Positions 3 through 23,795 of a DNA stretch of 23,795 nucleotides are shown here, in pieces; within the stretch, counting starts at the first letter, position 1; every line of letters begins with the position of its first letter. The position numbers were made by a program, and so were the translations under genes. The DNA is taken from contig JBNKTL010000060.1 in assembly GCA_050298055.1 (NCBI GenBank), positions 1 through 23,795 on the forward strand. Reading direction: 5' to 3'. The stretch comes from Spirochaetota bacterium. GTDB taxonomy: Bacteria > Spirochaetota > UBA4802 > UBA5550. The notes under the pieces are model-generated. The model worked only from the letters and a program-made list of their open reading frames with translations, ran no database searches and was not told the DNA's origin.

Positions 3-1907
3 GTGCCTGCCGGGATGGAACTTCTTCCCGGGTGCAGAGTTGTTGTTGATTTTTCCGGAAGGCAGACTCCCGCCTTTACAGTGGATGTGCATCACAGGGA
101 ACCGGAAGAGTATAAGGTCAAGGAGATCATCTCCGTTATTGATGACGAACCGGTATTTCACCGGAAACTGATTGAGCTGTCAGAAGAGATTGCGTCCTAC
201 TATTTTTCCTCTCCCGGTGAGGTCCTCTCTCTTGCCGTCCCTTCGGGGAGAAAGCCTTCGGGAAGATACAGGGTTCCCTTTGAAAAGAGCGAGACGAGAA
301 ACATAACCCTGAACCAGGACCAGGCCCGGATATTCGGGGAGATGAGAGACCAGTATGAAGCGGGAAACCTGCATCACCTCCTCTTCGGGGTAACCGGGAG
401 TGGTAAAACAGAAGTTTATATAGAGCTTGCAAAATACCTCATTGAAAAAGGGAGGTCGGTTATCTACCTTGTGCCGGAAATATCAATTTCATCCCAGATC
501 TTCAGCAGGCTCTATAATGTATTCGGTGATGAGCTGATCATCTACCACAGCAGTATTACTCCCAACCAGAGACTTCACAGCTGGAATAAGTTCCTCAAGG
601 GAGAGGCCCGGATAGCCGTCGGGACACGGTCCGCGGTTTTTCTCCAGTGTCCCGATCTCGGGGCCATTATCATAGATGAGGAACATGACGGATCATATAA
701 GGAGAACAGCTCTCCCCGGTACAATGCCAGGAGGGTCGCGTTTTACAGGAGCAAAAATGAGGGGAGCCTTGTTGTTCTCGGTTCGGCAACGCCGTCGGTT
801 GAATCACTCTATGCCGCGGAAACCGGTGCGCTGAAACTCCACAGGTTTGGGAAACGGTACGGAGGTTCAAAGCTCCCTGAGGTTGAAGTCGTTGAATTTA
901 ATCCCGGCGACGGAAAGGACTATCTCTCATCGACCCTGAAGCTTTTCACCAAAAGGGCTGTTGATGAAGGCAACCAGGTCATTTATCTCCTGAACAGGAG
1001 GGGATTTTCCCCCTTTGTCATATGTGACAGCTGCGGTCATGTTACGGAATGCCCCCATTGCAGCATATCCATGAACTACCATGGATCGGCGGGTCTTCTC
1101 TGTCACTACTGCGGTATGAAGAAAAGACTTCCCGAAGTCTGTGAAAAGTGCGGTTCCCGGAAGATCGTCAAGCTGGGGTCCGGCACACAGAGGGTTGAGG
1201 ATTTCATCAAGAACGCTTACGGGGATTTCAGGATATTCAGGCTGGACAGGGACAGCGTTAAGAAAAAGAACCATGCGGGCGAACTTGTTGAGAAGATGAA
1301 CAGAGGGGAGATCGACCTGCTCCTGGGAACACAGATGGTGGCCAAGGGATTCGATTTTCCCGGTGTTACCGTTGTGGGCGTTCTCATGGCCGATATCGGG
1401 CTCCACCTTCCCGATTTCAGGGCCTCGGAGCGAATATTTTCACTGCTGGTCCAGGTTGCGGGCCGCTCCGGAAGGGGGGAGAAACCGGGAAGGGTGATAC
1501 TCCAGACCCTCAACAGTGAACACCCTGTCTTCAGGTATATCAGGGACCACGACTATTACAGCTTCTACAGGTCTGAACTTGAGGAGAGAAAGCTTCTGAA
1601 TTATCCGCCATACTCAAGACTTGTACGCCTCCTTGTAAGGGGGCATGATGAAGGGAGGGTCCTTGAGACTGTGAACAGGCTCAGAAATATGATCGACAGT
1701 TTTCTCAAAACCACAAAGGCTGATATTACCGTTCTCGGTCCCGCGTCAGCGCCCCTCTCTAAAATTGCCGGGAACTACAGGTACCATATAATACTCAAGT
1801 CGAGGAATGCAGAAGAACTCCACAGGACCGTATCAGAAGCAAGAAAGATTACCGGTACCGGGAAGATATATCTTGAGATCGATATGGACCCTTATGATCT
1901 CCTGTAG
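3..1907 (+). CDS. priA: Primosomal protein N' (replication restart helicase), 5' end outside window
   Basis: Walker A GVTGSGKT, LVPEI, DEEHD, GSATPS, LNRRGF, Cys-rich region with four CxxC pairs, GTQMVAKGFDFP, QVAGRSGR, C-terminal DMDP. Confidence 0.97.
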   Translation: MPAGMELLPGCRVVVDFSGRQTPAFTVDVHHREPEEYKVKEIISVIDDEPVFHRKLIELSEEIASYYFSSPGEVLSLAVPSGRKPSGRYRVPFEKSETRNITLNQDQARIFGEMRDQYEAGNLHHLLFGVTGSGKTEVYIELAKYLIEKGRSVIYLVPEISISSQIFSRLYNVFGDELIIYHSSITPNQRLHSWNKFLKGEARIAVGTRSAVFLQCPDLGAIIIDEEHDGSYKENSSPRYNARRVAFYRSKNEGSLVVLGSATPSVESLYAAETGALKLHRFGKRYGGSKLPEVEVVEFNPGDGKDYLSSTLKLFTKRAVDEGNQVIYLLNRRGFSPFVICDSCGHVTECPHCSISMNYHGSAGLLCHYCGMKKRLPEVCEKCGSRKIVKLGSGTQRVEDFIKNAYGDFRIFRLDRDSVKKKNHAGELVEKMNRGEIDLLLGTQMVAKGFDFPGVTVVGVLMADIGLHLPDFRASERIFSLLVQVAGRSGRGEKPGRVILQTLNSEHPVFRYIRDHDYYSFYRSELEERKLLNYPPYSRLVRLLVRGHDEGRVLETVNRLRNMIDSFLKTTKADITVLGPASAPLSKIAGNYRYHIILKSRNAEELHRTVSEARKITGTGKIYLEIDMDPYDLL

Positions 1908-2078: not shown

Positions 2079-3470
2079 ATGGCTAAATTAGTAAAAATAT
2101 CAGACGAGAGGAAAAAGAAACAGCAGGAAGAGGAATCAAAGCTTGCCAAAAAGCAGGCTGAGATCAAAAACCTGAAAAAGGAGATCAAAAAGCTTAAACA
2201 GCAGGTTGAAACCCTGGGGCTCAGTCTGGATACAATTCACGGAAGGTACCTGGAATCAGCCCTTGTTTCTGTTGACCTTCTGGAAGACCTTGAATACCAG
2301 AAGTATAAATCTTCGTTTATTGATATCGGGATAAAGGCCCAATCGGATTACACCAGGCTGAAAAAGTACAGAACACTGATAAAAAACTTTTTCCTCAAGG
2401 AACTGAGGTGCTGCTATATCAAAGTAAGCTATATCGGGAGAAACAATAAGATAAAACATGAGCTTACCTTCAAATCATCGATAAATCATCAGAATGCATC
2501 AAGTTTCATCGATACATACAGCAAGTTTTACCATGTGGAACTGGTGGATGTTATGTTCCCCAAGCGTATTATCGGCAGGATCATAATCGGACGGCAGCCC
2601 TTTAAGGACAGCAAAAAGGAGAAAGACTACGAGAAGAAGATCAGGGATGAGATCCATTTTACACGAAAGGTCATAGAAAATACAATATCCGAGATCCATA
2701 ACAAGGAGCTTGCGGTCAAGGACCCGCTCACGGGTCTCTATAACAGGAAGTTTCTCGAGGAGAAGCTGAGAGACGAATTTAACAGTATTGACCTGCTTCC
2801 CACGCTTGGTCAGACAGAGAAGGATGTCCTTGATATCATCATGAAGTCGGACGGTAATGCATACAATATTATCAGGGACCAGTATATGTTCAAGCAGGGG
2901 ACAAAAGATGAAGAGCTCTTTGTCCAGACTATTGACAATCTTCGCGGCAATAACATCATCTCTTCACGGAAGGACATCTATCTCGGGCAGCTGATGGATT
3001 TTTACTCTTTTGAAAATTCAAAAAGGGACTACAGCCTTTTCATCGCGCTTTTTGATCTTGACCACTTCAAGGACATCAATGACAACTGGGGAGGCCACGA
3101 GGTTGGCGACAGAATACTTATAGAGTTTGCGGCAATAATGAAGAAGCATATACGAACAACAGATATTGTTGTAAGGCAGGGAGGGGAAGAGTTTATTATT
3201 ATATTTTCCCGCGCAATCTCAATGATGAAGATCAAGGAGGTCCTGGAGAAGATCCGAATGGAGTGTGAGAACAACCTGATTGTACGGTACCGGGGAAAGG
3301 AGAGAAACGTGACCGTTTCCATTGGTCTTACCAGGATAAGCAAGTATGATGTTAATTTCAACCAGATGATCACCAGGGCCGATGCCGCACTCTATGCCGC
3401 CAAGAATATCAGGAACAAGCTGATTATCTATGAGCAGGGTCCCGATGACTATATCAGGTATCACCTCTAG
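2079..3470 (+). CDS. Diguanylate cyclase: N-terminal coiled coil, GAF-like region, GGDEF domain interrupted by an insertion
   Basis: DPLTGLYNR, FDLDHFKDIND, GHEVGD, I-site RTTD, RQGGEEF, VTVSIG, ADAALYAAK; K/E/Q-rich heptad N-terminus. Confidence 0.9.
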   Translation: MAKLVKISDERKKKQQEEESKLAKKQAEIKNLKKEIKKLKQQVETLGLSLDTIHGRYLESALVSVDLLEDLEYQKYKSSFIDIGIKAQSDYTRLKKYRTLIKNFFLKELRCCYIKVSYIGRNNKIKHELTFKSSINHQNASSFIDTYSKFYHVELVDVMFPKRIIGRIIIGRQPFKDSKKEKDYEKKIRDEIHFTRKVIENTISEIHNKELAVKDPLTGLYNRKFLEEKLRDEFNSIDLLPTLGQTEKDVLDIIMKSDGNAYNIIRDQYMFKQGTKDEELFVQTIDNLRGNNIISSRKDIYLGQLMDFYSFENSKRDYSLFIALFDLDHFKDINDNWGGHEVGDRILIEFAAIMKKHIRTTDIVVRQGGEEFIIIFSRAISMMKIKEVLEKIRMECENNLIVRYRGKERNVTVSIGLTRISKYDVNFNQMITRADAALYAAKNIRNKLIIYEQGPDDYIRYHL

Positions 3471-7289: not shown

Positions 7290-8546
7290 ATGGACAGTTA
7301 CCTGACAGTTATTCTATTACTTGTACTTTTTGCGCTCCTTTCTGCGTTTTTTTCAGGGTCAGAAACAGCGCTCTTTTCTCTCTCCAAATCGGACCTGCAC
7401 CGGTATTCATCATCAAAGAGCGGTATCAAAAGGTCCCTGTCAAAGCTTATGATGGAGCCGCAGAAGATCCTTATTACCATCCTAATCGGCAACCTCCTGG
7501 TAAACCTGCTCTTCTCGGCCCTTTCCACGGACCTGATGCTCATGAAGTGGCCGCGGTACGGGCACTTTCTTTCAATAGCAATTGTGACGCCGGTGATGAT
7601 CATACTCTGTGAAATTTCACCGAAGATTTTATCGATTAACTACTATGAACATGTTTCTTCCGGTGTCTATTATCTTCTTAAGGGGTTTCACAGGATTTTC
7701 GCGCCGCTGCGGTTGGTCCTTGAATTTCTTACAAATGGAATAATCAAAATCTTCAAACTGGAAATGCTGCATGATACCATTACCCGGGATGAACTGCATA
7801 CGGCCCTGGAAGCAGGTGAGCTTGAAGGTATTATCGAGAAAGAGGAGGGGGACTATATAAAGAACGTCCTCAGGTTTTCGAAAAAAGACGGTTCGAACAT
7901 CATGTTTCCCAGGAACAGGTCGATCTTCATACAACAGGGATCCTCTATTGAGGATGCAATGAAGATATTCCTGGAATCGGATATAACCCGGGCCCCGGTT
8001 ATAAAGGGAGATCCTGATAATATTATCGGGATGGTCGATTCGAAGGACCTGATCCTGAGTTACCTGGGATTTCGGAGATCAAAAAATATAAACAGGTTTA
8101 TCCGCCCGGTTGATTTTTTCCCCTCATCCATAGAGCTGAATAGTCTTTTGAATGAATTTCTTTCACGGGGTATACAGCTTGCTGTTATGGTTGATGAGTA
8201 TGGAGGTACCGACGGTGTGGTGACCCTCAACTCCATACTTGCCGAACTCATGGGTAAGGACTTCAGTAAATGGGATGTTGATTCCCGGCCCGATATCAGG
8301 ATGCTGGGAGATGAGATCTCCGTTATTTCAGGGGAGATGCAGATAGACGACTTCAACTTTCACTTTGATGAGAGCCTGGAAAGCAGTGAAACAGATTCAA
8401 TCGGGGGATATATCATCGAGAAACTGGCCTTCTTCCCCGGCAGGGGAGATGAGATACAGACAGAAAAATACAGGCTCAGGGTCAGGTTTATCCGGAAAAA
8501 CAAAATTGAGACGGTGGAAGTTATCCAGCTTAAGAATGGAAAGTAA
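7290..8546 (+). CDS. CNNM/HlyC-CorC family membrane protein (DUF21-CBS-CBS-CorC)
   Basis: SAFFSGSETALFSL, ILIGNLLVN, CEISPK, VDEYGGTDG, C-terminal CorC-like domain. Confidence 0.94.
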   Translation: MDSYLTVILLLVLFALLSAFFSGSETALFSLSKSDLHRYSSSKSGIKRSLSKLMMEPQKILITILIGNLLVNLLFSALSTDLMLMKWPRYGHFLSIAIVTPVMIILCEISPKILSINYYEHVSSGVYYLLKGFHRIFAPLRLVLEFLTNGIIKIFKLEMLHDTITRDELHTALEAGELEGIIEKEEGDYIKNVLRFSKKDGSNIMFPRNRSIFIQQGSSIEDAMKIFLESDITRAPVIKGDPDNIIGMVDSKDLILSYLGFRRSKNINRFIRPVDFFPSSIELNSLLNEFLSRGIQLAVMVDEYGGTDGVVTLNSILAELMGKDFSKWDVDSRPDIRMLGDEISVISGEMQIDDFNFHFDESLESSETDSIGGYIIEKLAFFPGRGDEIQTEKYRLRVRFIRKNKIETVEVIQLKNGK

Positions 8547-8560
8547 AAAGGTATACGGTA

Positions 8561-9823
8561 TTGGACATTAATTATATCGCCATATATGAAGCCGCAATTT
8601 TCTGTCTCATCCTGATGTCGGCGTTTTTTTCAGGTTATGAAACGTCGCTGATCTCATCCAGCAGGATAAAGATAGAGACCGACGCGAAGAACGGGTCAGG
8701 GAGTGCCAGAAGGGCTCTTGCTGTCCTTGACAGGATTGAGGACGCAATCGGGACAATCCTCATCGGCAATAATGTCGCGAATATCGGTGCGACCGCCTTT
8801 ATTACCTTCCTTGCCACAAAGACTTATCTCCTGGATGAAAGAGGGCTGCTTATGGTCACCCTGGTACAGACCTTTGTCTTTCTTGTCCTCTGCGAGGTGT
8901 CCCCCAAGGTCATTGCGCGGTCGAAACCGGAAAGCTTCCTGAAAATTTTCTCCTATCCGATCATATTCCTCATGACCGTTCTGAAACCGTTTATATGGTT
9001 ATCGCTCTTTGTGTCCAAGCTGCTTAACAGGAAGATAAAAGCAGACCAGGTGAGTACATCAATCGTCAGATCACGGGACGAACTGGACCTCCTTTTCAAA
9101 CTGGGAAGGAAAGAGGGAGTCATATATAAAGACCACCAGATTTATATATCAGAAATACTCTCCTTCAGGGAGGTCACCGCCTATGAGATAATGACTCCTG
9201 TGGTAGATATTGAATCTGTTGATATTACAACCGGTATAAAGAAGCTTGCCGAACTGATCCACAGTACCGGTTTTTCCCGGATTCCTGTTTTTGACCGCAG
9301 GGTGGACAATATCGTGGGATATATCTTCTACAGGGACATTCTGAAAAATACCGGTGTAAAAGATCTTAAAGAAATTATCACCAAACCCTATTATGTCCCG
9401 GGGACCAAGAATATCTACGAGCTCTACCAGGAGATGTATGATAACTCCCTGCCCATTGTTTTCGTGGTGAATGAATATGGCGGGATAATCGGGATGGTTT
9501 CAAACGAAGATATTGCCGAAGAGGTTGTAGGAGAGATTCAGACCAGCGACCATGAGGAAGATAAACTTATTGTCCGGGTAAATGAAAAAAAGTATCTCCT
9601 CAGCGGTGATCTGAATATCGACTATTTCCAGAGACATTTTGCCATACCCATAGAAAAGCGCGGCTTTAAAACACTGGCCGGTTTTATTACTTATCACTTA
9701 AAAAGGATCCCCAAAAAAGGGGACCGGCTGACTTATAAAAATACGGTTTTTGTTATTGATGAAGCAACCGATCGTTCTGTGGAGAAGGTGATCATGTACC
9801 TTCAGGGGAGCGGAAAAAAATAG
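8561..9823 (+). CDS. Second CNNM/HlyC-CorC family membrane protein
   Basis: SAFFSGYETSL, ILIGNNVAN, CEVSPK, IMTP, GFSRIPV, VNEYGG, EEVVGEI, TLAGFI; TTG start. Confidence 0.94.
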   Translation: MDINYIAIYEAAIFCLILMSAFFSGYETSLISSSRIKIETDAKNGSGSARRALAVLDRIEDAIGTILIGNNVANIGATAFITFLATKTYLLDERGLLMVTLVQTFVFLVLCEVSPKVIARSKPESFLKIFSYPIIFLMTVLKPFIWLSLFVSKLLNRKIKADQVSTSIVRSRDELDLLFKLGRKEGVIYKDHQIYISEILSFREVTAYEIMTPVVDIESVDITTGIKKLAELIHSTGFSRIPVFDRRVDNIVGYIFYRDILKNTGVKDLKEIITKPYYVPGTKNIYELYQEMYDNSLPIVFVVNEYGGIIGMVSNEDIAEEVVGEIQTSDHEEDKLIVRVNEKKYLLSGDLNIDYFQRHFAIPIEKRGFKTLAGFITYHLKRIPKKGDRLTYKNTVFVIDEATDRSVEKVIMYLQGSGKK

Positions 9824-10790: not shown

Positions 10791-11384
10791 ATGAATGTTA
10801 AAGTCATGTCTGTTTTTTTATCATTTTTTTTCCTTTTTATGTTATTTACGTCTGATGTGGAATCAGCCGGGAGAATAGCGAAAGGGAACTCCACTCAATA
10901 CAGGGCTCCTTCCCGGGAAATAATTATATCACCTTATGGGGGATTTATTTACGCGAAAGATCTCTATACTGTTAATCTTGAAGATCAATCGGGATTTGGA
11001 GGTGGTATAAATATCAGAACACAGATTTACAAAAACTTCGGGTATATGGTTGATATTTTTATTCCCTCCCTTGACATTATTGAAGAAGAAAATCTTACTG
11101 ATGACTGGGAACAGGGAACGGAATTTGTCGCTATCTACACAGGAGGATTCTATTATAGTATCCCTAACTGGAAATTCGATTTATCCTATGGAGCGATTTC
11201 TTCAGGTGTCAGTATCATGACGATTTTTATACCCGGTGTTGAATATAATAGAAATATTTTGCAAAGAGTGTCTTTTTTCTCTAAGCTTGGTTATTTAATC
11301 ACCAATGACTGGTTTTCGGATTCGGGGTATGAAGAACATTATACGTCATTTATGCTTTCTGTGGGTTTATCCATAGTATTCTAA
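10791..11384 (+). CDS. Putative small outer-membrane beta-barrel protein, paralogue B
   Basis: Purine-rich RBS; signal peptide; about 82% identical to paralogue A over the last 162 aa (hand alignment); ends VGLSIVF. Confidence 0.75.
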   Translation: MNVKVMSVFLSFFFLFMLFTSDVESAGRIAKGNSTQYRAPSREIIISPYGGFIYAKDLYTVNLEDQSGFGGGINIRTQIYKNFGYMVDIFIPSLDIIEEENLTDDWEQGTEFVAIYTGGFYYSIPNWKFDLSYGAISSGVSIMTIFIPGVEYNRNILQRVSFFSKLGYLITNDWFSDSGYEEHYTSFMLSVGLSIVF

Positions 11385-11764: not shown

Positions 11765-13717
11765 ATGAGCAAAAAAATTGATCTTATAAAAAATATTGAG
11801 ATGTTTTCCGGGCTGACAAAAAAGGAGCTTGCTGAGTTTTCGAAGCTGTGCAAATACGCTGATTACAGAAAAAATTCATATGTCTTTAAAAAAGGAGAAA
11901 AGAGCAGTTCCTTTTTCATCGTCGCCGAAGGGGAGATAACTATTCTCGATAAAGGTTCAGATAAAGATGAACAGATCCTTGCCAACTTCATCCCGGGAGA
12001 AATTTTCGGGGAATTTGACCTCTTTGAAAATGACAGGCGGACTGCACATGCAATTGCCGGCAAAAAAACACGGCTCCTGGTGTTTCCTGCAGGTGAAGAA
12101 GATATCGATATCATTTTCAGGAAAAACCCCGGAATATTCGCGAAAATCTGCTACAGCCTGATTACCATTAATGCAGGAAGAATAAGGCACACAAATAAAC
12201 TGGTGACAGAGAAAACATCCTGGATAGAAGACCTTAAAGAACGGATGCTCAAGGATAAATTGACCGGTTTTTATAACAAATCATACCTGGATGAGGAACT
12301 TCCCTCCCTCCTTGCAGACAGGAAAGAACAGCTGAGCCTTCTGGTTGTAAAACCCGATGATTTTAAAACCATTAATGATACCTTCGGGCATGAAGCAGGT
12401 GATAAAGCCCTCATAGAAATATCTGAGACTGTGAGGTCCAGACTGAATGACAAGGGCATCCCGGTGAGGTTCAGGGGCAATGAGTTTATTGTTCTCTACA
12501 TGAATACGCCCCTTCAGGAAGCGTTAAAAAAAGCGGAAGAACTTCATGAAACCCTCAGCAGTATTGATATTGGAATGATCATCGGTGATAAAAATCTCCG
12601 CCTGACCTACAGCTTCGGACTGGCGGTTTATCCGGACAATTCGGACACTATTGATGAGCTCATTGAACTGGCATATTCACGAATGTTCAAGCAGAGAGAC
12701 AAGGGGGGCAACGGGATCCAGTATGTTGATGATATTGACAACAGCAGCCTGGATTTTCTCAAAACCGTAAAAGCATTTTCGTCTCTGCACCTTTCGGAAC
12801 TGAAATCCATATCCGGTTTTATCGAGCCCCTGAATATATCAGAGGGGGAGGCCCTCTGCAGTGAGGGGGATGAAGGCCAGGAAATGTTTATCATTGAGAC
12901 AGGGAAAACCGAAGTCACTATACAGATGCAGGACGGGTCCGCGAAAAAGCTTACCGAATTCACAGCCGGTGACTTTTTCGGAGAAATGGCCATTTTCGAG
13001 GATGCGAAGAGGTCGGCCACATGTACGGCCCTTGAAGAGAGCAGGGTCCTCAGGCTGAATAAAAGCGATTTTCATAAATTTATGAAGAAGTCCCCCTTTG
13101 CAGCCATTAAAATTATGAGAGAAATGCTGGATATCACTTCCCACAGGCTGACAAATACCAGTCGGTTTGTTTCGGAAATGGTGAGATGGGGGGAGGAAGC
13201 CAGTAAGAGGGCCATCACAGATGAGCTCTCCGGTCTCTACAACAGAAGGTATCTGGACACATCACTTGAGGAAGAGTTTCACAAAACGGAAAAAAATAAA
13301 ACACCTCTTTCTCTTATCATGGTAGACTTGGATTTTTTCAGGGAAGTCAACGAGCAGTACAGCCATGAAATTGGTGATGAATATATTGTGGAAGTCTCAA
13401 AGGTCTTTAAGAAGCATTTCAGAAATACTGATATTATCTCCCGTTACGGAGGAGATGAGTTTACCATTATCCTTCCGAATACCGGCTTAAAGGACGCGTA
13501 TGATGTGGCGGAAAATATCAGGAAAAATGTTGAAAAAATTGATTTCCTGAAAAAGTATAAGGGGCCTGATATTAAACTCTCAACAAGCCAGGGAATTGCC
13601 GCTTTTCCCGAAAATACCGCAGACCTGAAAGGTCTGAAAGAACTGGCTGATAAGGCCCTCTACAGGGCAAAGGAGACGGGAAGAAACAGGGTCGTCTGCT
13701 GGGAGGACGAAGCCTGA
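11765..13717 (+). CDS. Cyclic-nucleotide-binding diguanylate cyclase: cNMP - degenerate GGDEF - cNMP - GGDEF
   Basis: cNMP cassettes FGEFDLF..RRTA and FGEMAIF..KRSA; first GGDEF reads RFRGNEF; second has DELSGLYNRR, DLDFF, RNTD, RYGGDEF, ADKALYRAKETGRNRV. Confidence 0.93.
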   Translation: MSKKIDLIKNIEMFSGLTKKELAEFSKLCKYADYRKNSYVFKKGEKSSSFFIVAEGEITILDKGSDKDEQILANFIPGEIFGEFDLFENDRRTAHAIAGKKTRLLVFPAGEEDIDIIFRKNPGIFAKICYSLITINAGRIRHTNKLVTEKTSWIEDLKERMLKDKLTGFYNKSYLDEELPSLLADRKEQLSLLVVKPDDFKTINDTFGHEAGDKALIEISETVRSRLNDKGIPVRFRGNEFIVLYMNTPLQEALKKAEELHETLSSIDIGMIIGDKNLRLTYSFGLAVYPDNSDTIDELIELAYSRMFKQRDKGGNGIQYVDDIDNSSLDFLKTVKAFSSLHLSELKSISGFIEPLNISEGEALCSEGDEGQEMFIIETGKTEVTIQMQDGSAKKLTEFTAGDFFGEMAIFEDAKRSATCTALEESRVLRLNKSDFHKFMKKSPFAAIKIMREMLDITSHRLTNTSRFVSEMVRWGEEASKRAITDELSGLYNRRYLDTSLEEEFHKTEKNKTPLSLIMVDLDFFREVNEQYSHEIGDEYIVEVSKVFKKHFRNTDIISRYGGDEFTIILPNTGLKDAYDVAENIRKNVEKIDFLKKYKGPDIKLSTSQGIAAFPENTADLKGLKELADKALYRAKETGRNRVVCWEDEA

Positions 13718-16200: not shown

Positions 16201-17583
16201 ATGAAAGAGAATTTCCTACAACTCTTACGGACCAGGATATTCTTCAAATCCCTTGCGTCTTATGCCATCCTTCTCCTCCTGAATATCAGTCTGCAGATTA
16301 TCATTATACTTTATAATCAATCCGGTCTTGCCGGCAAGGTGGAAATCCAGGACCTCTATCTTGAAAACCTTAAATTCAGGAAGTTTCTCTCCAGTAAAGC
16401 GGAAGAAATGAAAATTTCAGGTGATGACAGAGACCGGGTCATTCAATTGATTAAAAAGTCAGGCATGAGTATGAAATCCGGAACCTGTGAATTATCTCTT
16501 TTCGATGCTAACGGCCGTTTGCTCATGAAAAAGGATTATGGGAATCCCTTATGCTCTGCGGAAGAAAGTGAAAGCTCTTCCCTTGATGACAAAAGAATGG
16601 CCCTCAAACTGATCTTTAAATATAGAATCGACAGAACCGGATCTCTCTATAATATCAAATCAGAGTCTCTCATGAACAGCTTTCTGATATTTCAACCCGG
16701 CGGTAATATCTATGTTTTGAAAACATCCAGACAGCTCCGGGAGATGAGAAGGCTTTCACGTGTTCTCTTTTTCCAGGTCCTGGTGGTATTCTTCATCTCA
16801 CTGGTTATTCACTCCCTGTTTACCTACCTGATCTATAAGAATATTATCAGGCCTCTCAAGAACCTTAATGCGATGACAAAAAAGGTCATGGAGGGAGATT
16901 TTACAGGAAAAATTAATTATAAAGGCGGTGATGAAATCGGCGAGCTCTCAAATTCATTCAATGAGATGACAATGGCAATTAATAACCTGAGGAATGAAGC
17001 TCTTGATTCTAATCCTCTCACCGGTCTCCCGGGAAACAATGTGATAATGCGCACTGTAAACCAGTGGCTTGAAAAGGGAAGTGCTTTTGCACTGGCTTAT
17101 GTGGATCTTGATAATTTTAAACCCTTTAATGATAAGTTCGGATTTGAGACCGGTGATACTGCTATCATTCTTCTGAGTGAGGTCCTTAAGGATATATGCA
17201 AAGAAAATCCCGGTGTTTTTGTTGGTCATACAGGTGGAGATGACTTTGTTTTTCTGTCGGATTATCAGGATTATGAAAAGATCGGGAATAAAGTTATCCA
17301 TGAGTTCTCCCGGAGGTCTGAGCAACTTTACTCTCCCGAAGTCATACAGAGAGGCTACTATATTTCAAAAACACGGAGCGGTGAGATCAAAAAGTTCCGG
17401 CTTCTCAGTATTAGTATCGGTGTGGTAACAAACAACTCAAGGAAATTCGCATCATACTCAGAGATCGTCCAGGAAGTCACAAAGATGAAAAAATATGCGA
17501 AAAATTTTGAAGGGAATACATTAACCCCGGGAATGTTTTCCCCCGGAAACAGGAAGGGTTCCAGGGCGGAGGTTCCGATATGA
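16201..17583 (+). CDS. Membrane-bound HAMP-GGDEF protein (GGDDF variant)
   Basis: Two TM helices flanking an extracytoplasmic domain; HAMP (IIRPLKNL..DEIGELSNSFNEM); NPLTGLPGN, DLDNFKPFND, GHTGGDDF. Confidence 0.9.
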   Translation: MKENFLQLLRTRIFFKSLASYAILLLLNISLQIIIILYNQSGLAGKVEIQDLYLENLKFRKFLSSKAEEMKISGDDRDRVIQLIKKSGMSMKSGTCELSLFDANGRLLMKKDYGNPLCSAEESESSSLDDKRMALKLIFKYRIDRTGSLYNIKSESLMNSFLIFQPGGNIYVLKTSRQLREMRRLSRVLFFQVLVVFFISLVIHSLFTYLIYKNIIRPLKNLNAMTKKVMEGDFTGKINYKGGDEIGELSNSFNEMTMAINNLRNEALDSNPLTGLPGNNVIMRTVNQWLEKGSAFALAYVDLDNFKPFNDKFGFETGDTAIILLSEVLKDICKENPGVFVGHTGGDDFVFLSDYQDYEKIGNKVIHEFSRRSEQLYSPEVIQRGYYISKTRSGEIKKFRLLSISIGVVTNNSRKFASYSEIVQEVTKMKKYAKNFEGNTLTPGMFSPGNRKGSRAEVPI

Positions 17584-19678: not shown

Positions 19679-22600
19679 ATGATGATGAAGTTTATCGGAT
19701 CAAAAACCATGAGAATACTTTTCCTCTTATTTCTCTTCCCCGGGGCCCTCTCCGCCGCTTCCCCTGTTACCATTGAGAAGGGGAAGGAGATATACCCCCT
19801 GGCTCCTCATGTCTCCATTCTTGAAGATAAAACAGGTTTACTCTCAGTCACAGAAGCGGTCAGGAGACAGGCTGAATTCCGGGACAATACGAAGAAAGAG
19901 ATCGGTTTCGGGTTTTCACAGTCAGCCTACTGGACTCACTTCACACTGCAATCTGAAAGTCGAAAAAGCACTACATGGTTTCTGGAACTGGCAAATGCCC
20001 GTATGCAGAAAATCGATCTCTATATTTTTCAAAACAAGAAACTGCTTACTCATAAAAAGAGCGGAATAGATCTCCCCTTTCACCGGCGTGACATCGATTA
20101 CCGCTTTTTCATCTTTACCCTTCATCTAAAAGCACCGGGAGAGCTCTCCGTTTTTATCCGGACAGAGACAAGAACATCCCATTTCCTCCCCCTTACCCTT
20201 TATTCCTCTGAAGCCCTGGCGGAAAAAAGGCAGACTGATTATGCTTACAGCGGGTTATTTTACGGCTGTATTTTAATTATGTTTATCTATAACCTCTTTT
20301 TATTCTTTTCCATCCGTTCAAGCGATTATCTCTTTTACGTCTGCACTGTTTTATTTTCGTTACTTTACACCTTATCTTTTGAGGGTTTCGGCTATCAATT
20401 CCTCTGGTCTCATTCACCGAACTGGAATCTGCCAAGCCCGTTAATTGCGGGACAAATAACTATAGTGTTTTTCATTATTTTTTCAACGGGACTTCTGAGA
20501 ACTGCAGACTATTTACCCCGTTTGCATCGTTTTTTAAAGGGCGCAAATTATGTATTGATAGTCACTCTCTTTGGTCATTTTTTTATCGATTACTATATCA
20601 TGAATTATATTTTTACGATTTTCCTTTCAATCATTATTTTTAGTTTTGTTCCCATAAGTTTCTTCATTGTAAAAATGGGGAATAGATCGGCCAGGTTTTT
20701 TATCTTTACATTTCTCTGTCTGCTCCTGGCATCCACTCTCCATGTTATCAATCTCATGGGCATGTTGGAAGAATCTTTTCCAACGATAAATATTGTTCGT
20801 ATCAGTTTATTAATTTTGCTCACTTTTTTTTCACTGGCCCTTGCCGATTATATCAACCTGATGCGCGAGCAGTTGATGGAGCAGAACATCAGGCTGCAGA
20901 AGCTTGATGAGCTGAAAGACGAGTTCCTTGCCGGCACTTCCCATGAACTGCGCACCCCCTTAAACGGCATCATCGGACTTGCGGAATCGATGATCCAGGG
21001 TATCGGGGCTCCCCACAGGGAACAGACCCTCTCCAATCTCCGGATGATCTCCTCCAGCGGCAGGCGACTTGCCCGCCTGGTAAACGACATCCTTGACTTT
21101 TCCCGGCTGAGGCACCGGGATATTATTTTACAGAAAAAAGCTGTTGATCTGAACCCCATGGTGGACATGGTCTTCCGGTTTTCCCGTTCCATGATGGGAG
21201 ATAAGGAGATTAAACTATTAAATGAGTGCGGCTCTCTTCCCCTTCTCCTGGGGGACGAAAACCGGCTGGAGCAGATCCTCTATAACCTCATCGGCAATGC
21301 CGTTAAATTCACCGATGAGGGGTCTGTCACGGTATTGGCAAAAGCCGCAGGGGGGATGGCCGAAATCTCCGTCTGCGATACGGGAATCGGCATCCCGGAG
21401 GAGAAGCGGGATATTATCTTTGAATCCTTTCAGCAGGGGGACGGTTCCATCTCCCGAAAATACGGAGGCACCGGCCTGGGGCTTTCCATTACAAAAAATC
21501 TTGTTGAGCTTCACGGGGGGACAATCCGGGTTGAATCCTCTCCTTCGGCTTCGCTCGGGATAAACCCTTCAGTTCAGCTCAACACAGGTGACTCTAATAA
21601 ACAGAGGGGTGGCCCCCCAGCAGAGCCAAGGGGTTCATGTTTTATCTTTACCATTCCCCTGGCTGATGAAAAAGATCTGGCAGAGGCGAAGGATGACGGC
21701 AGAGAAAAGGTTCACCGTTTCCTGAGTCCTGACCCTGTGCTCATGGAAACCCCGCCCGGAGAGGAGACTCAAAGGGATGCCGCTCCGGGAACCGAAATGA
21801 AAAAATTCACCGATACCGGCGGTTTACCGGAGCACACCGGCAGATGTACAATACTGGCTGTGGATGATGATATTATTAACCTGCAGGTTATCGAGAACCA
21901 TCTCTCACTGAAGGGATACCGGGTGATCACCGCCCGGAACGGGACCCGGGCGCTGGAAATACTTGAAGGGGGGGAAAAAACAGACCTGGTTTTGCTTGAC
22001 CTCATGATGCCGGGATTGAACGGGTATGAAGTCTGCAGGATCATACGGGAGAAGTACAATCCCAACGAGCTCCCCGTCATTATCCTTACCGCCAAGAATA
22101 ATATCTCCGACCTCGCCGACGGCCTTGCCTTCGGGGCAAACGATTTTATCCCCAAGCCCTTCTCCTTCCCCGAGTTGACCTCCAGGGTGGAAAACCAGGT
22201 GAAGATGTCACGATTTTTTCTGAATATAAAAGACCTCAACGAAAACCTTGAGCGGAAGATCGAGGAGCGGACGGCGGAGCTGAAGGAAACAATGGTGGAG
22301 CTCCGCTCCGCCAATACCGCCAAGAACAGGTTCCTCTCCATCATATCCCACGACCTGAGGGGCCCCATCGGAAACCTTGCCAAGGTCTTTAACAGCGTGG
22401 CCGGGAAGGGGTCGGACATATCGGACACCCTATTCCAGCAGCTGCGGGAGACAACCATAAGTGTTTCCCACATGCTGGAGGACCTCCTCATCTGGGCGGC
22501 CCTGCAGAGGGAGAAGCTTGAGATTCATCCGGAAAACTTTGATATCTGCAGAGGGGCTAACCTTGCCGCCGATCCCATGAGGCTCCTTGCCCGGAGCAGG

Positions 22601-23002
22601 AAGATTACCCTGAACCTCCCTGATGAAAATGAATCAATAAAAATCCTGGCGGAATCCCGGTCGGTGATAACCGTTTTAAGAAATCTTATTTCAAACGCCA
22701 TTAAATATACCTCCGCCGGCGGAAGCATAAGCGTTGAAGTAAAACGGGAGAATGATACGGTTAAGGTCAGCGTGACTGATACGGGGAGGGGGATTACAGA
22801 GGAGAAATTGAAGGAGCTCCTCAATCCTGAAAGAGCCGATTCGGTAAAGATCGACAGTGAAAAGGAACAGGTTTCCGGATTCGGCCTTATGCTCTGCAGG
22901 TACTTCATCGAAGCCAACGGCGGGGAGATAGGGGCAGAGAGCGTTATCAACAGGGGAAGCACCTTCTGGTTCCGGTTGCCGGCAGGGGAGGGGACGGGTT
23001 GA
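19679..23002 (+). CDS. 7TM-DISM hybrid sensor kinase: DISMED2 - 7TM - HisKA/HATPase - receiver - second HisKA/HATPase
   Basis: Signal peptide; FGFSQSAYW; GLFYG..YNLFLF; SHELRTPLNG, NAVKF, DTGIGI, GGTGLGL; receiver VDDD, DLMMP, KPF; second SHDLRGP, NAIKY, DTGRGI, SGFGL. Start may be ATG 19685 by RBS spacing. Confidence 0.94.
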   Translation: MMMKFIGSKTMRILFLLFLFPGALSAASPVTIEKGKEIYPLAPHVSILEDKTGLLSVTEAVRRQAEFRDNTKKEIGFGFSQSAYWTHFTLQSESRKSTTWFLELANARMQKIDLYIFQNKKLLTHKKSGIDLPFHRRDIDYRFFIFTLHLKAPGELSVFIRTETRTSHFLPLTLYSSEALAEKRQTDYAYSGLFYGCILIMFIYNLFLFFSIRSSDYLFYVCTVLFSLLYTLSFEGFGYQFLWSHSPNWNLPSPLIAGQITIVFFIIFSTGLLRTADYLPRLHRFLKGANYVLIVTLFGHFFIDYYIMNYIFTIFLSIIIFSFVPISFFIVKMGNRSARFFIFTFLCLLLASTLHVINLMGMLEESFPTINIVRISLLILLTFFSLALADYINLMREQLMEQNIRLQKLDELKDEFLAGTSHELRTPLNGIIGLAESMIQGIGAPHREQTLSNLRMISSSGRRLARLVNDILDFSRLRHRDIILQKKAVDLNPMVDMVFRFSRSMMGDKEIKLLNECGSLPLLLGDENRLEQILYNLIGNAVKFTDEGSVTVLAKAAGGMAEISVCDTGIGIPEEKRDIIFESFQQGDGSISRKYGGTGLGLSITKNLVELHGGTIRVESSPSASLGINPSVQLNTGDSNKQRGGPPAEPRGSCFIFTIPLADEKDLAEAKDDGREKVHRFLSPDPVLMETPPGEETQRDAAPGTEMKKFTDTGGLPEHTGRCTILAVDDDIINLQVIENHLSLKGYRVITARNGTRALEILEGGEKTDLVLLDLMMPGLNGYEVCRIIREKYNPNELPVIILTAKNNISDLADGLAFGANDFIPKPFSFPELTSRVENQVKMSRFFLNIKDLNENLERKIEERTAELKETMVELRSANTAKNRFLSIISHDLRGPIGNLAKVFNSVAGKGSDISDTLFQQLRETTISVSHMLEDLLIWAALQREKLEIHPENFDICRGANLAADPMRLLARSRKITLNLPDENESIKILAESRSVITVLRNLISNAIKYTSAGGSISVEVKRENDTVKVSVTDTGRGITEEKLKELLNPERADSVKIDSEKEQVSGFGLMLCRYFIEANGGEIGAESVINRGSTFWFRLPAGEGTG

Positions 23003-23193: not shown

Positions 23194-23795
23194 ATGAAGT
23201 TAATTCAATCAAAAACCATGAGAATACTTTTCCTCATATTTCTCTTCCCCGGGGCCCTCTCCGCATCTTCCCCTGTTACCCTTGAGAAGGGTAGGGAGAT
23301 ATACCCGCTGGGGCTCCACGCGGAGTACCTGGAAGATCAAACGGGAAAACTCACCTTTGAGGAGGTCATCTCCCCGGCAAATGATGGGAAATGGAAAACA
23401 AGTAAAAAGGAGAACCTCAGCTTCGGCTATACCACTTACGCCTACTGGGTGCGGCTGCAGCTTGACCATGCATTTCAGGCCACTGAAAAGTGGGTCCTTG
23501 AAGTGGGTTACTGCAATCTTGACCTGATCGATTTTTACGTATCCCTCCCCGGCGGGAGATGGAAACATACCCGGTCCGGCGACATGTTCCCCTATAAACA
23601 GAGGGAGTTCCGTTACCTGGACTTTCATTTCTCCCTCCCCGGTCCCTACTCCGGTACGCAGCAGGTATATCTCCGGGTGGAGAGTACCAGCAGCATTGTT
23701 ATCCCCCTTACCCTCTACAGCCAGAAGGCCCTGGGAGAGAAGGAGGAGAACGGAGGCATCCTGCTGGGGCTCTTCTACGGCATCATGATCGTTAT
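23194..23795 (+). CDS. Second 7TM-DISM sensor protein, runs off window (absent from ORF track)
   Basis: GGAG RBS then MKLIQSKTMRILFLIFLFPGALSA..YLEDQTG..SFGYTTYAYWVRL..LRVESTSS..LLGLFYGIMIV; frame open to window end. Confidence 0.92.
   Translation, partial: MKLIQSKTMRILFLIFLFPGALSASSPVTLEKGREIYPLGLHAEYLEDQTGKLTFEEVISPANDGKWKTSKKENLSFGYTTYAYWVRLQLDHAFQATEKWVLEVGYCNLDLIDFYVSLPGGRWKHTRSGDMFPYKQREFRYLDFHFSLPGPYSGTQQVYLRVESTSSIVIPLTLYSQKALGEKEENGGILLGLFYGIMIV

Follow-up and report, generated by a model that had tools for sequence, protein, structure and literature searches.

A Spirochaetota GGDEF diguanylate cyclase with a predicted winged-helix module nested in its catalytic domain

In GGDEF cyclases, the catalytic domain is normally compact and contiguous, and control comes from separate sensor domains on its N-terminal side. 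A cyclase gene in a 23,795-nucleotide stretch of DNA from a Spirochaetota bacterium (referred to here as the window) raised the question of whether a folded domain can instead be placed inside the catalytic domain. In a preliminary description, which was made from the DNA sequence, a winged-helix-like insertion was placed within the GGDEF domain of the encoded protein, and it was proposed to be an embedded DNA- or protein-binding module. Here, we asked whether the insert was real, how it was likely to fold, where it occurred, and what it might do.

Pfam recognized one family in the protein encoded by this gene, GGDEF (PF00990; 119 bits versus a cut-off of 23.8; E value of 2.1e-34). The match was split into two stretches, and the main stretch covered aa 313-444 and started at profile position 25 of 161. 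A profile of the protein's own family matched solved cyclases with an E value of 1e-32. When aligned to PleD and SiaD, the catalytic residues of the window cyclase were intact (the metal-binding motif D326xD328xFK331, the guanine-binding N334 and D344, G368GEEF372, K442, and R445), and G368GEEF372, D326, D328, N334, and D344 were invariant in 47 sequences. The primary I-site RxxD motif (R359TTD362), which was located 5 residues upstream of GGEEF, was also intact, and R359 and D362 were invariant. Thus, both motifs were present as originally described, and the window protein, as judged by its residues, is apparently active as a diguanylate cyclase and subject to product inhibition; its family is lineage-restricted. 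In addition, an invariant W337-G-G-H340 segment (aa 336-340) had one residue more than the NDxxGH loop of SiaD and PleD.

In the case of the region preceding the GGDEF domain, the long N-terminal helices gave weak coiled-coil-type matches only, and the Pfam scan assigned no family to the small alpha/beta domain at aa 113-172. F105, C111, D157, P161, R163, G166, and G171 were invariant in or just before this domain, and the alpha/beta unit is a candidate sensor domain. The conserved N-terminal unit (aa 90-172) was always found alongside the insert. The positions of these features are shown in Table 1.

Table 1. Features of the cyclase gene, of the rest of the window, and of orthologous loci (positions are those of the window unless a locus is named)
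Feature	Residues	Nucleotides	Strand	Basis
Whole gene, 463-aa GGDEF diguanylate cyclase with predicted nested winged helix		2079..3470 (including stop codon)	+	ORF translation, Pfam
N-terminal long helices, K/E-rich, coiled-coil-like	2-86, 90-108	2082..2402	+	AF2 DSSP
Conserved N-terminal unit	90-172	2346..2594
Small conserved alpha/beta N-domain	113-172	2415..2594	+	AF2 DSSP, alignment
Long stalk helix into GGDEF domain	178-213	2610..2717	+	AF2 DSSP
GGDEF N-terminal extension: wide turn D215xLTGLxNR223 and helix alpha0 (aa 223-237)		2721..2789	+
Motif D215PLTGLYNR223	215-223	2721-2747
81-aa nested module, predicted winged helix	238-318	2790..3032	+	AF2, Foldseek, VIA-align, alignment
GGDEF catalytic core, beta1 onwards	319-463	3033..3467	+	Pfam, PleD/SiaD alignment
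Motif D326LDHFK331	326-331	3054-3071
Segment with W337-G-G-H340	336-340	3084..3098
Motif R359TTD362 (primary I-site)	359-362	3153-3164
Motif G368GEEF372	368-372	3180-3194
priA		3..1907
Tandem CNNM/CBS/CorC_HlyC transporter paralogues		7290..8546, 8561..9823	+
Two ORFs of about 200 aa		10045..10662, 10791..11384	+
650-aa GGDEF/cNMP-binding protein (GGDEF stretches at nt 12251-12712 and 13211-13690)		11765..13717	+
HAMP-GGDEF protein		16201..17583	+
7TMR-DISM hybrid histidine kinase		19679..23002	+
7TMR-DISMED2 protein		23194..23793	+
Small cNMP-binding genes of orthologous loci		L009:3340-3870, L010:2846-3469, L013:3337-3867, L015:2857-3414	divergent to cyclase

The preliminary description had estimated a gap of about 100 residues, versus the usual 20-25, between the DxLTGLxNR and DxDxFK motifs. 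We counted the residues that separate the arginine at the end of DxLTGLxNR from the initial aspartate of DxDxFK in 269 proteins, 33 of which had no motif pair. The spacing in the window cyclase was 102 residues (R223 to D326), and the same value was found in all 52 motif pairs of the insert-bearing family. The comparison set, which consisted of about 200 non-family proteins that were the best GGDEF matches to this query and not a random sample, yielded 236 motif pairs; the spacing was 22-46 residues in 234 pairs and exactly 26 (the mode) in 196. The two outlying spacings, 202 and 233 (P0134 and P0165), were rejected as large inserts, because these proteins have tandem GGDEF domains and the regular expression had paired motifs across different domains. 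A spacing of 102 in the family versus 22-46 elsewhere indicated that the insert was real and not a chance feature. The first placement of the insert (2784-3030) corresponds to aa 236-318; the insert as delimited here is aa 238-318, which are 81 residues within the alpha0-beta1 loop of the GGDEF domain. The insert added about 76 residues at a site that was otherwise nearly constant in length, and comparisons of the family profile with solved cyclases left 84 profile positions unaligned against 8 residues of SiaD (7e6g) and 92 profile positions unaligned against 16 residues of PleD. The window cyclase does not have a contiguous GGDEF domain with a short alpha0-beta1 loop (spacing of about 26); its long spacing is a variant architecture and not grounds for exclusion from the GGDEF family.

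We aligned the query with 46 of the 49 homologues from the word-seeded search described below; P0003-P0005, whose identity to the query was 84-86%, were left out. Every aligned homologue had the insert, and its length was 81 residues in 47 of 47 sequences with zero indels. The insert was 25-48% identical to those of the homologues (77% for the closest), and the whole protein was 39-60% identical (86% for the closest). Residues L243, L251, L288, and F311 in the core of the insert were conserved, and D277, G303, E304, S314, and K315, which are surface or junction residues, were invariant or near-invariant. A conserved F311-E-N-S314-K315 junction followed the hairpin described below, and the invariant S314-K315 was located six residues before beta1.

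AlphaFold2 predictions for the full protein, which were based on the 47-row alignment, had a mean pLDDT of 83.6, and the means of 10-residue blocks were 87-92 across aa 231-310. The elements predicted in the insert were H1 (245-257), S1 (about 260-261), H2 (262-273), H3 (278-290), and a hairpin (294-301/304-311); these were followed by beta1 (aa 321-327) and then a normal GGDEF core. The same elements were predicted when the 81 residues were folded alone (mean pLDDT of 80.5). When the insert model was compared to the PDB with Foldseek, there was no match at an E value of ≤0.001. The best E value was 7.1e-3, and every match listed was a winged-helix protein; BlaI/MecI, LmrR/PadR, NolR, ScpB, TFIIE, and CodY-C were among those listed, with TMq values of 0.57-0.76. 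VIA-align, which was run against 48,161 representative chains, placed MecI at the top (Z score of 11.6, 75 aligned residues, rmsd of 3.6), followed by RosR (10.6), Nur (Fur; 10.3), BlaI (9.9), and MarR and PadR (about 9). The best 50 matches listed (Z scores of 11.6 to 8.6) were all winged helices, and the tool states that a best Z score of 7-8 is typical for models without a clear Foldseek match.

With its predicted H1-S1-H2-H3-S2-S3 order and structural matches above background, the insert is predicted to fold as a winged helix. This agrees with the helix-helix-helix-hairpin pattern that had been read from the sequence; the model was confident, not disordered, and returned only winged-helix proteins, including the PadR/LmrR, BlaI/MecI, and MarR types. 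The fold does not tell what the insert binds, however, because the structural matches were a mixture of DNA binders (MecI, BlaI, Fur, MarR, PadR, histone H5, and ORC) and protein-binding winged helices (cullin WHB, Z score of 9.9; Stn1, 9.9; RPA32C, 9.6; ScpB, 9.2; and ESCRT-II, 8.7).

As for relatives in sequence, a Pfam scan of aa 223-321 with E values up to 10 yielded only HTH_DNAJC9 (E value of 0.12). Scans of the window genome with the PadR (PF03551), MarR (PF01047), and Penicillinase_R (PF03965) profiles at an E value of ≤0.001 identified 1, 6, and 0 places, respectively, and none was in the cyclase gene. Thus, with no Pfam profile match, membership of the insert in the MarR, PadR, or BlaI/MecI family was not supported, and the MarR/PadR-like label that had been attached to it should not be taken to mean family membership. 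A search for stand-alone relatives among proteins shorter than 254 aa produced 3 candidates, none of which had an E value of ≤1. Among longer proteins, an insert-only profile (A3, which was built from 21 sequences) revealed no other architecture, and 10 of 10 matches were to the same GGDEF-only family, which is weak evidence. Comparison of the insert profile with PDB sequences yielded only designed repeat proteins (E value of 0.008) and noise, and ESM Atlas features for aa 238-318 gave no usable match. At the sequence level, the insert appears to be an orphan that is confined to one GGDEF family.

A word-seeded search of 5.8 billion proteins yielded 49 matches (P0002-P0050) that were 40-86% identical to the query. 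Forty-eight of these matches covered at least 92% of the query, P0048 (403 aa) covered 79%, and further matches covered the catalytic core only. An exhaustive HMMER search of 1.84 billion cluster representatives produced 367,411 GGDEF-type matches. Among the 150 matches listed, three full-length clusters spanned the insert (P0005, P0046, and P0050) and two fragments reached into it (P0121 and P0207); P0122 and P0123 were core-only fragments with about 60% identity. The source names on two clusters were Spirochaetota or Spirochaetes bacterium. When a query consisting of the N-terminal region plus the insert was used, matches were found in 22 of the 401 genomes that were sampled from the phylum, with the window genome counted; in one of the 22 (G188), the match was weak, partial, and outside the insert. 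With the A3 profile, exactly one place was identified in the window genome and in 20 genomes out of the 39 that were sampled from its GTDB family; none was identified in 361 sampled Spirochaetota genomes of other families. The 401 genomes yielded no orthologue that lacked the insert, and the insert was present in this gene alone among the 28 GGDEF matches in the window genome. In these searches, the insert occurred in a single protein family, which came from a single bacterial family of Spirochaetota.

The location of the insert suggested a link to product inhibition. In GGDEF domains, a wide turn with the DxLT motif and helix alpha0 lead to beta1, and the order is then beta1-alpha1-alpha2-beta2-beta3-alpha3-beta4-alpha4-beta5 (PMC8041772). 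The secondary I-site arginine is R125 in SiaD and R313 in PleD (PMC8457831). In the case of DgcR, R163 on alpha0' is at the secondary I-site, with "arginines enriched at either position" (PMC8041772). In our alignments, the loop replaced by the insert was SiaD 124-131 and PleD 308-323 (chain index). The insertion point is the place of the secondary I-site arginine in PleD, SiaD, and DgcR. According to nucleotidyl-cyclase topology, beta1 and beta2 should run in the same direction and reach the active site with their C-terminal ends. Their N-terminal ends, which are the insert junction in the case of beta1 and are preceded by RxxD in the case of beta2, would be on one face, opposite the GGEEF hairpin, and, if so, the insert would project from the product-inhibition face. 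We infer that the insert adjoins the I-site, and this is topological reasoning and not a measured contact.

The reading that we tentatively put forward, and to which we give close to an even chance, is that the insert, as a nested module on the product-inhibition face, serves in regulation or docking and does not read DNA. Such a module might replace, reshape, or block the secondary I-site, with the conserved basic residues R/K266 and K/R300 and the invariant K315 as candidate contact residues. Alternatively, it might offer a surface for a partner protein; the conserved surface candidates in or next to the insert are R/K266 (helix 2), K/R300-Y-x-G303-E304 (wing tip), and S314-K315. In both cases, the insert would control whether the catalytic domains of a stalk-linked dimer are kept apart or released. 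Against this reading, no known c-di-GMP-binding motif could be recognized in the insert, the gene neighborhood suggested no partner, and the top structural matches are DNA binders. It is also conceivable, although we consider it quite unlikely, that the insert is a new secondary I-site or c-di-GMP-responsive latch inside the cyclase domain. The cyclase's own product would then clamp the winged helix onto RxxD, or free it for a target protein or DNA, and one polypeptide would emit a local c-di-GMP signal and also be the first to receive it. A homodimer prediction with two copies of aa 178-463 and the family alignment, which was run without controls, had a score of 0.00 versus a mark of 0.42 and speaks neither for nor against any of these readings.

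In favor of the DNA-binding function that had been suggested for the insert, the best structural matches (MecI, RosR, Nur/Fur, and BlaI) are DNA-binding repressors. A nested winged helix that binds DNA or RNA might tether c-di-GMP synthesis to the nucleoid or to a locus, or it might make the protein a one-component regulator. Helix 2 was basic (family mean charge of +2.6), and a DNA helicase gene was upstream of or adjacent to the cyclase gene in 6 of 20 loci (PriA in L001-L003 and UvrD/PcrA in L006, L007, and L014). The UvrD genes, however, were convergent and hence not co-transcribed with the cyclase gene. Moreover, helix 3, which is the usual recognition helix, was near neutral (mean of +0.4; -2 in the window protein), and its exposed positions (282, 283, 286, 287, and 289-291) were variable, with column entropies of 2.1-3.1 bits; the buried L288 of this helix was invariant. 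The wing was acidic (mean of -2.1; -1 in the window protein), with the conserved E304 at its tip, and it lacked the acidic-x-Arg pattern (a D-x-R type wing motif) that was present in the MarR wings of the window genome. There was no match to a Pfam HTH or wHTH family, and the extra dimerization helices of MarR and PadR were absent. The net charge of the insert (-4 in the window protein; family mean of +1.0, range of -6 to +8) provided weak support only against DNA binding, because the range overlapped that of real MarR/PadR segments of the window genome (-1 to +7). Given the variable exposed surface of helix 3, a wing tip (G303-E304) that is not basic, and a charge of about neutral, the suggested DNA binding was not favored. 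We view binding to DNA or RNA as unlikely, and we lean toward protein contacts or allosteric control.

A MarR- or PadR/LmrR-like insert might also sense a small molecule, and the ligand would then switch the cyclase from within its catalytic domain. The insert was structurally similar to the ligand-responsive LmrR, PadR, MarR, BpsR, and VanR, and Pfam recognized no sensor domain elsewhere in the protein. We find this very unlikely, because the pockets in those regulators are at the dimer interface or in extra helices, which are absent from the 81-aa core, because the conserved insert residues are mostly core hydrophobics, and because the N-terminal alpha/beta domain is a more obvious sensor candidate. 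It also seems rather improbable that the insert is a tolerated structural decoration, that is, an ancient insertion that became fixed but does nothing specific in regulation. The alpha0-beta1 loop is outside the catalytic core, and the insert was less conserved than the whole protein. On the other hand, there was no indel in 47 sequences down to 39% overall identity, the surface and junction residues listed above were invariant or near-invariant, and zero insert-less orthologues were found in the 401 genomes.

The priA gene was located upstream of the cyclase gene, with a gap of 171 bp. Downstream, there was a STAS gene, which is encoded on the opposite strand, and then a class A PBP gene. This gene order was kept in the two closest relatives only, and the STAS gene was missing from both. 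No conserved neighboring gene was found across 19 orthologous loci; the neighbors, by locus count, were PriA/PBP1A (3, including the window), UvrD (3), M48 peptidase and FKBP (2), and tRNA_edit (2). Because the neighborhood varied among orthologues, no operon partner could be inferred, and a promoter and terminator scan yielded nothing informative. In 4 of the 19 orthologous loci, a gene for a small cNMP-binding protein (177-208 aa) was located upstream of the cyclase gene in the divergent orientation.

Two other proteins encoded in the window had GGDEF sequences. The 650-aa protein, which contained two GGDEF stretches and two cNMP-binding stretches, may be a tandem cNMP-GGDEF duplication. In the case of the HAMP-GGDEF protein, which had a GGDDF motif, Pfam GGDEF matched the first half of the domain (profile positions 5-94 of 161), and the rest of the domain showed a faint similarity to the Cas10/Cmr2 palm2 (E value of 0.0064). 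The window also contained the two tandem transporter paralogues shown in Table 1, two ORFs with no Pfam family in a stretch with a GC content of 0.35 (versus 0.40-0.53 elsewhere), and a 1107-aa hybrid histidine kinase that also contained a receiver and, in its C-terminal region, a second HATPase-like part; the 7TMR-DISMED2 protein that followed the kinase runs off the window.

If c-di-GMP synthesis were regulated or localized through a folded domain nested at the secondary inhibitory site, this would differ from the usual control by separate sensor domains, and we found no description of a nested-domain GGDEF architecture in the full text of open-access papers and bioRxiv. If product inhibition is tuned by the insert, or if the insert recruits a target, then the cyclase would illustrate domain-insertion allostery in second-messenger signaling in a compact and natural form, and it would be a testable handle on "local" c-di-GMP signaling. 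The practical reach is limited because this cyclase occurs only in a single family of Spirochaetota, which is largely uncultured.

The window cyclase was similar to the stalk-linked cyclases PleD, DgcR, SiaD, and WspR in its DxLTGLxNR wide turn, alpha0, and DxDxFK motif, in its guanine-binding N and D, in the RxxD five residues before GGEEF, in its C-terminal K/R pair, and in the long helix that precedes the GGDEF domain. It differed from these cyclases in having an N-terminal domain with no Pfam family, and from PleD and SiaD in having one extra residue in the NDNWGGH loop. Furthermore, PleD and SiaD have an 8- to 16-residue alpha0-beta1 loop with the secondary I-site Arg, whereas the window cyclase has the 81-residue predicted module.

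The predicted H1-S1-H2-H3-hairpin topology of the insert was common to BlaI/MecI, PadR/LmrR, MarR, and Fur (TMq of 0.71 with BlaI and 0.6-0.76 with LmrR/PadR). These repressors had no sequence match to the insert, which corresponds to the winged-helix core only and has no dimerization or sensor helices. They are also free regulators, whereas the insert is nested in an enzyme domain and has a variable helix-3 surface and an acidic wing tip. The winged helices of cullin WHB, RPA32C, Stn1, ScpB, and ESCRT-II serve as docking surfaces and are not known to read DNA. These protein-binding winged helices, which are mostly from eukaryotic or chromosome-maintenance complexes and have no sequence relation to the insert, had the same predicted fold as the insert with comparable Z scores.
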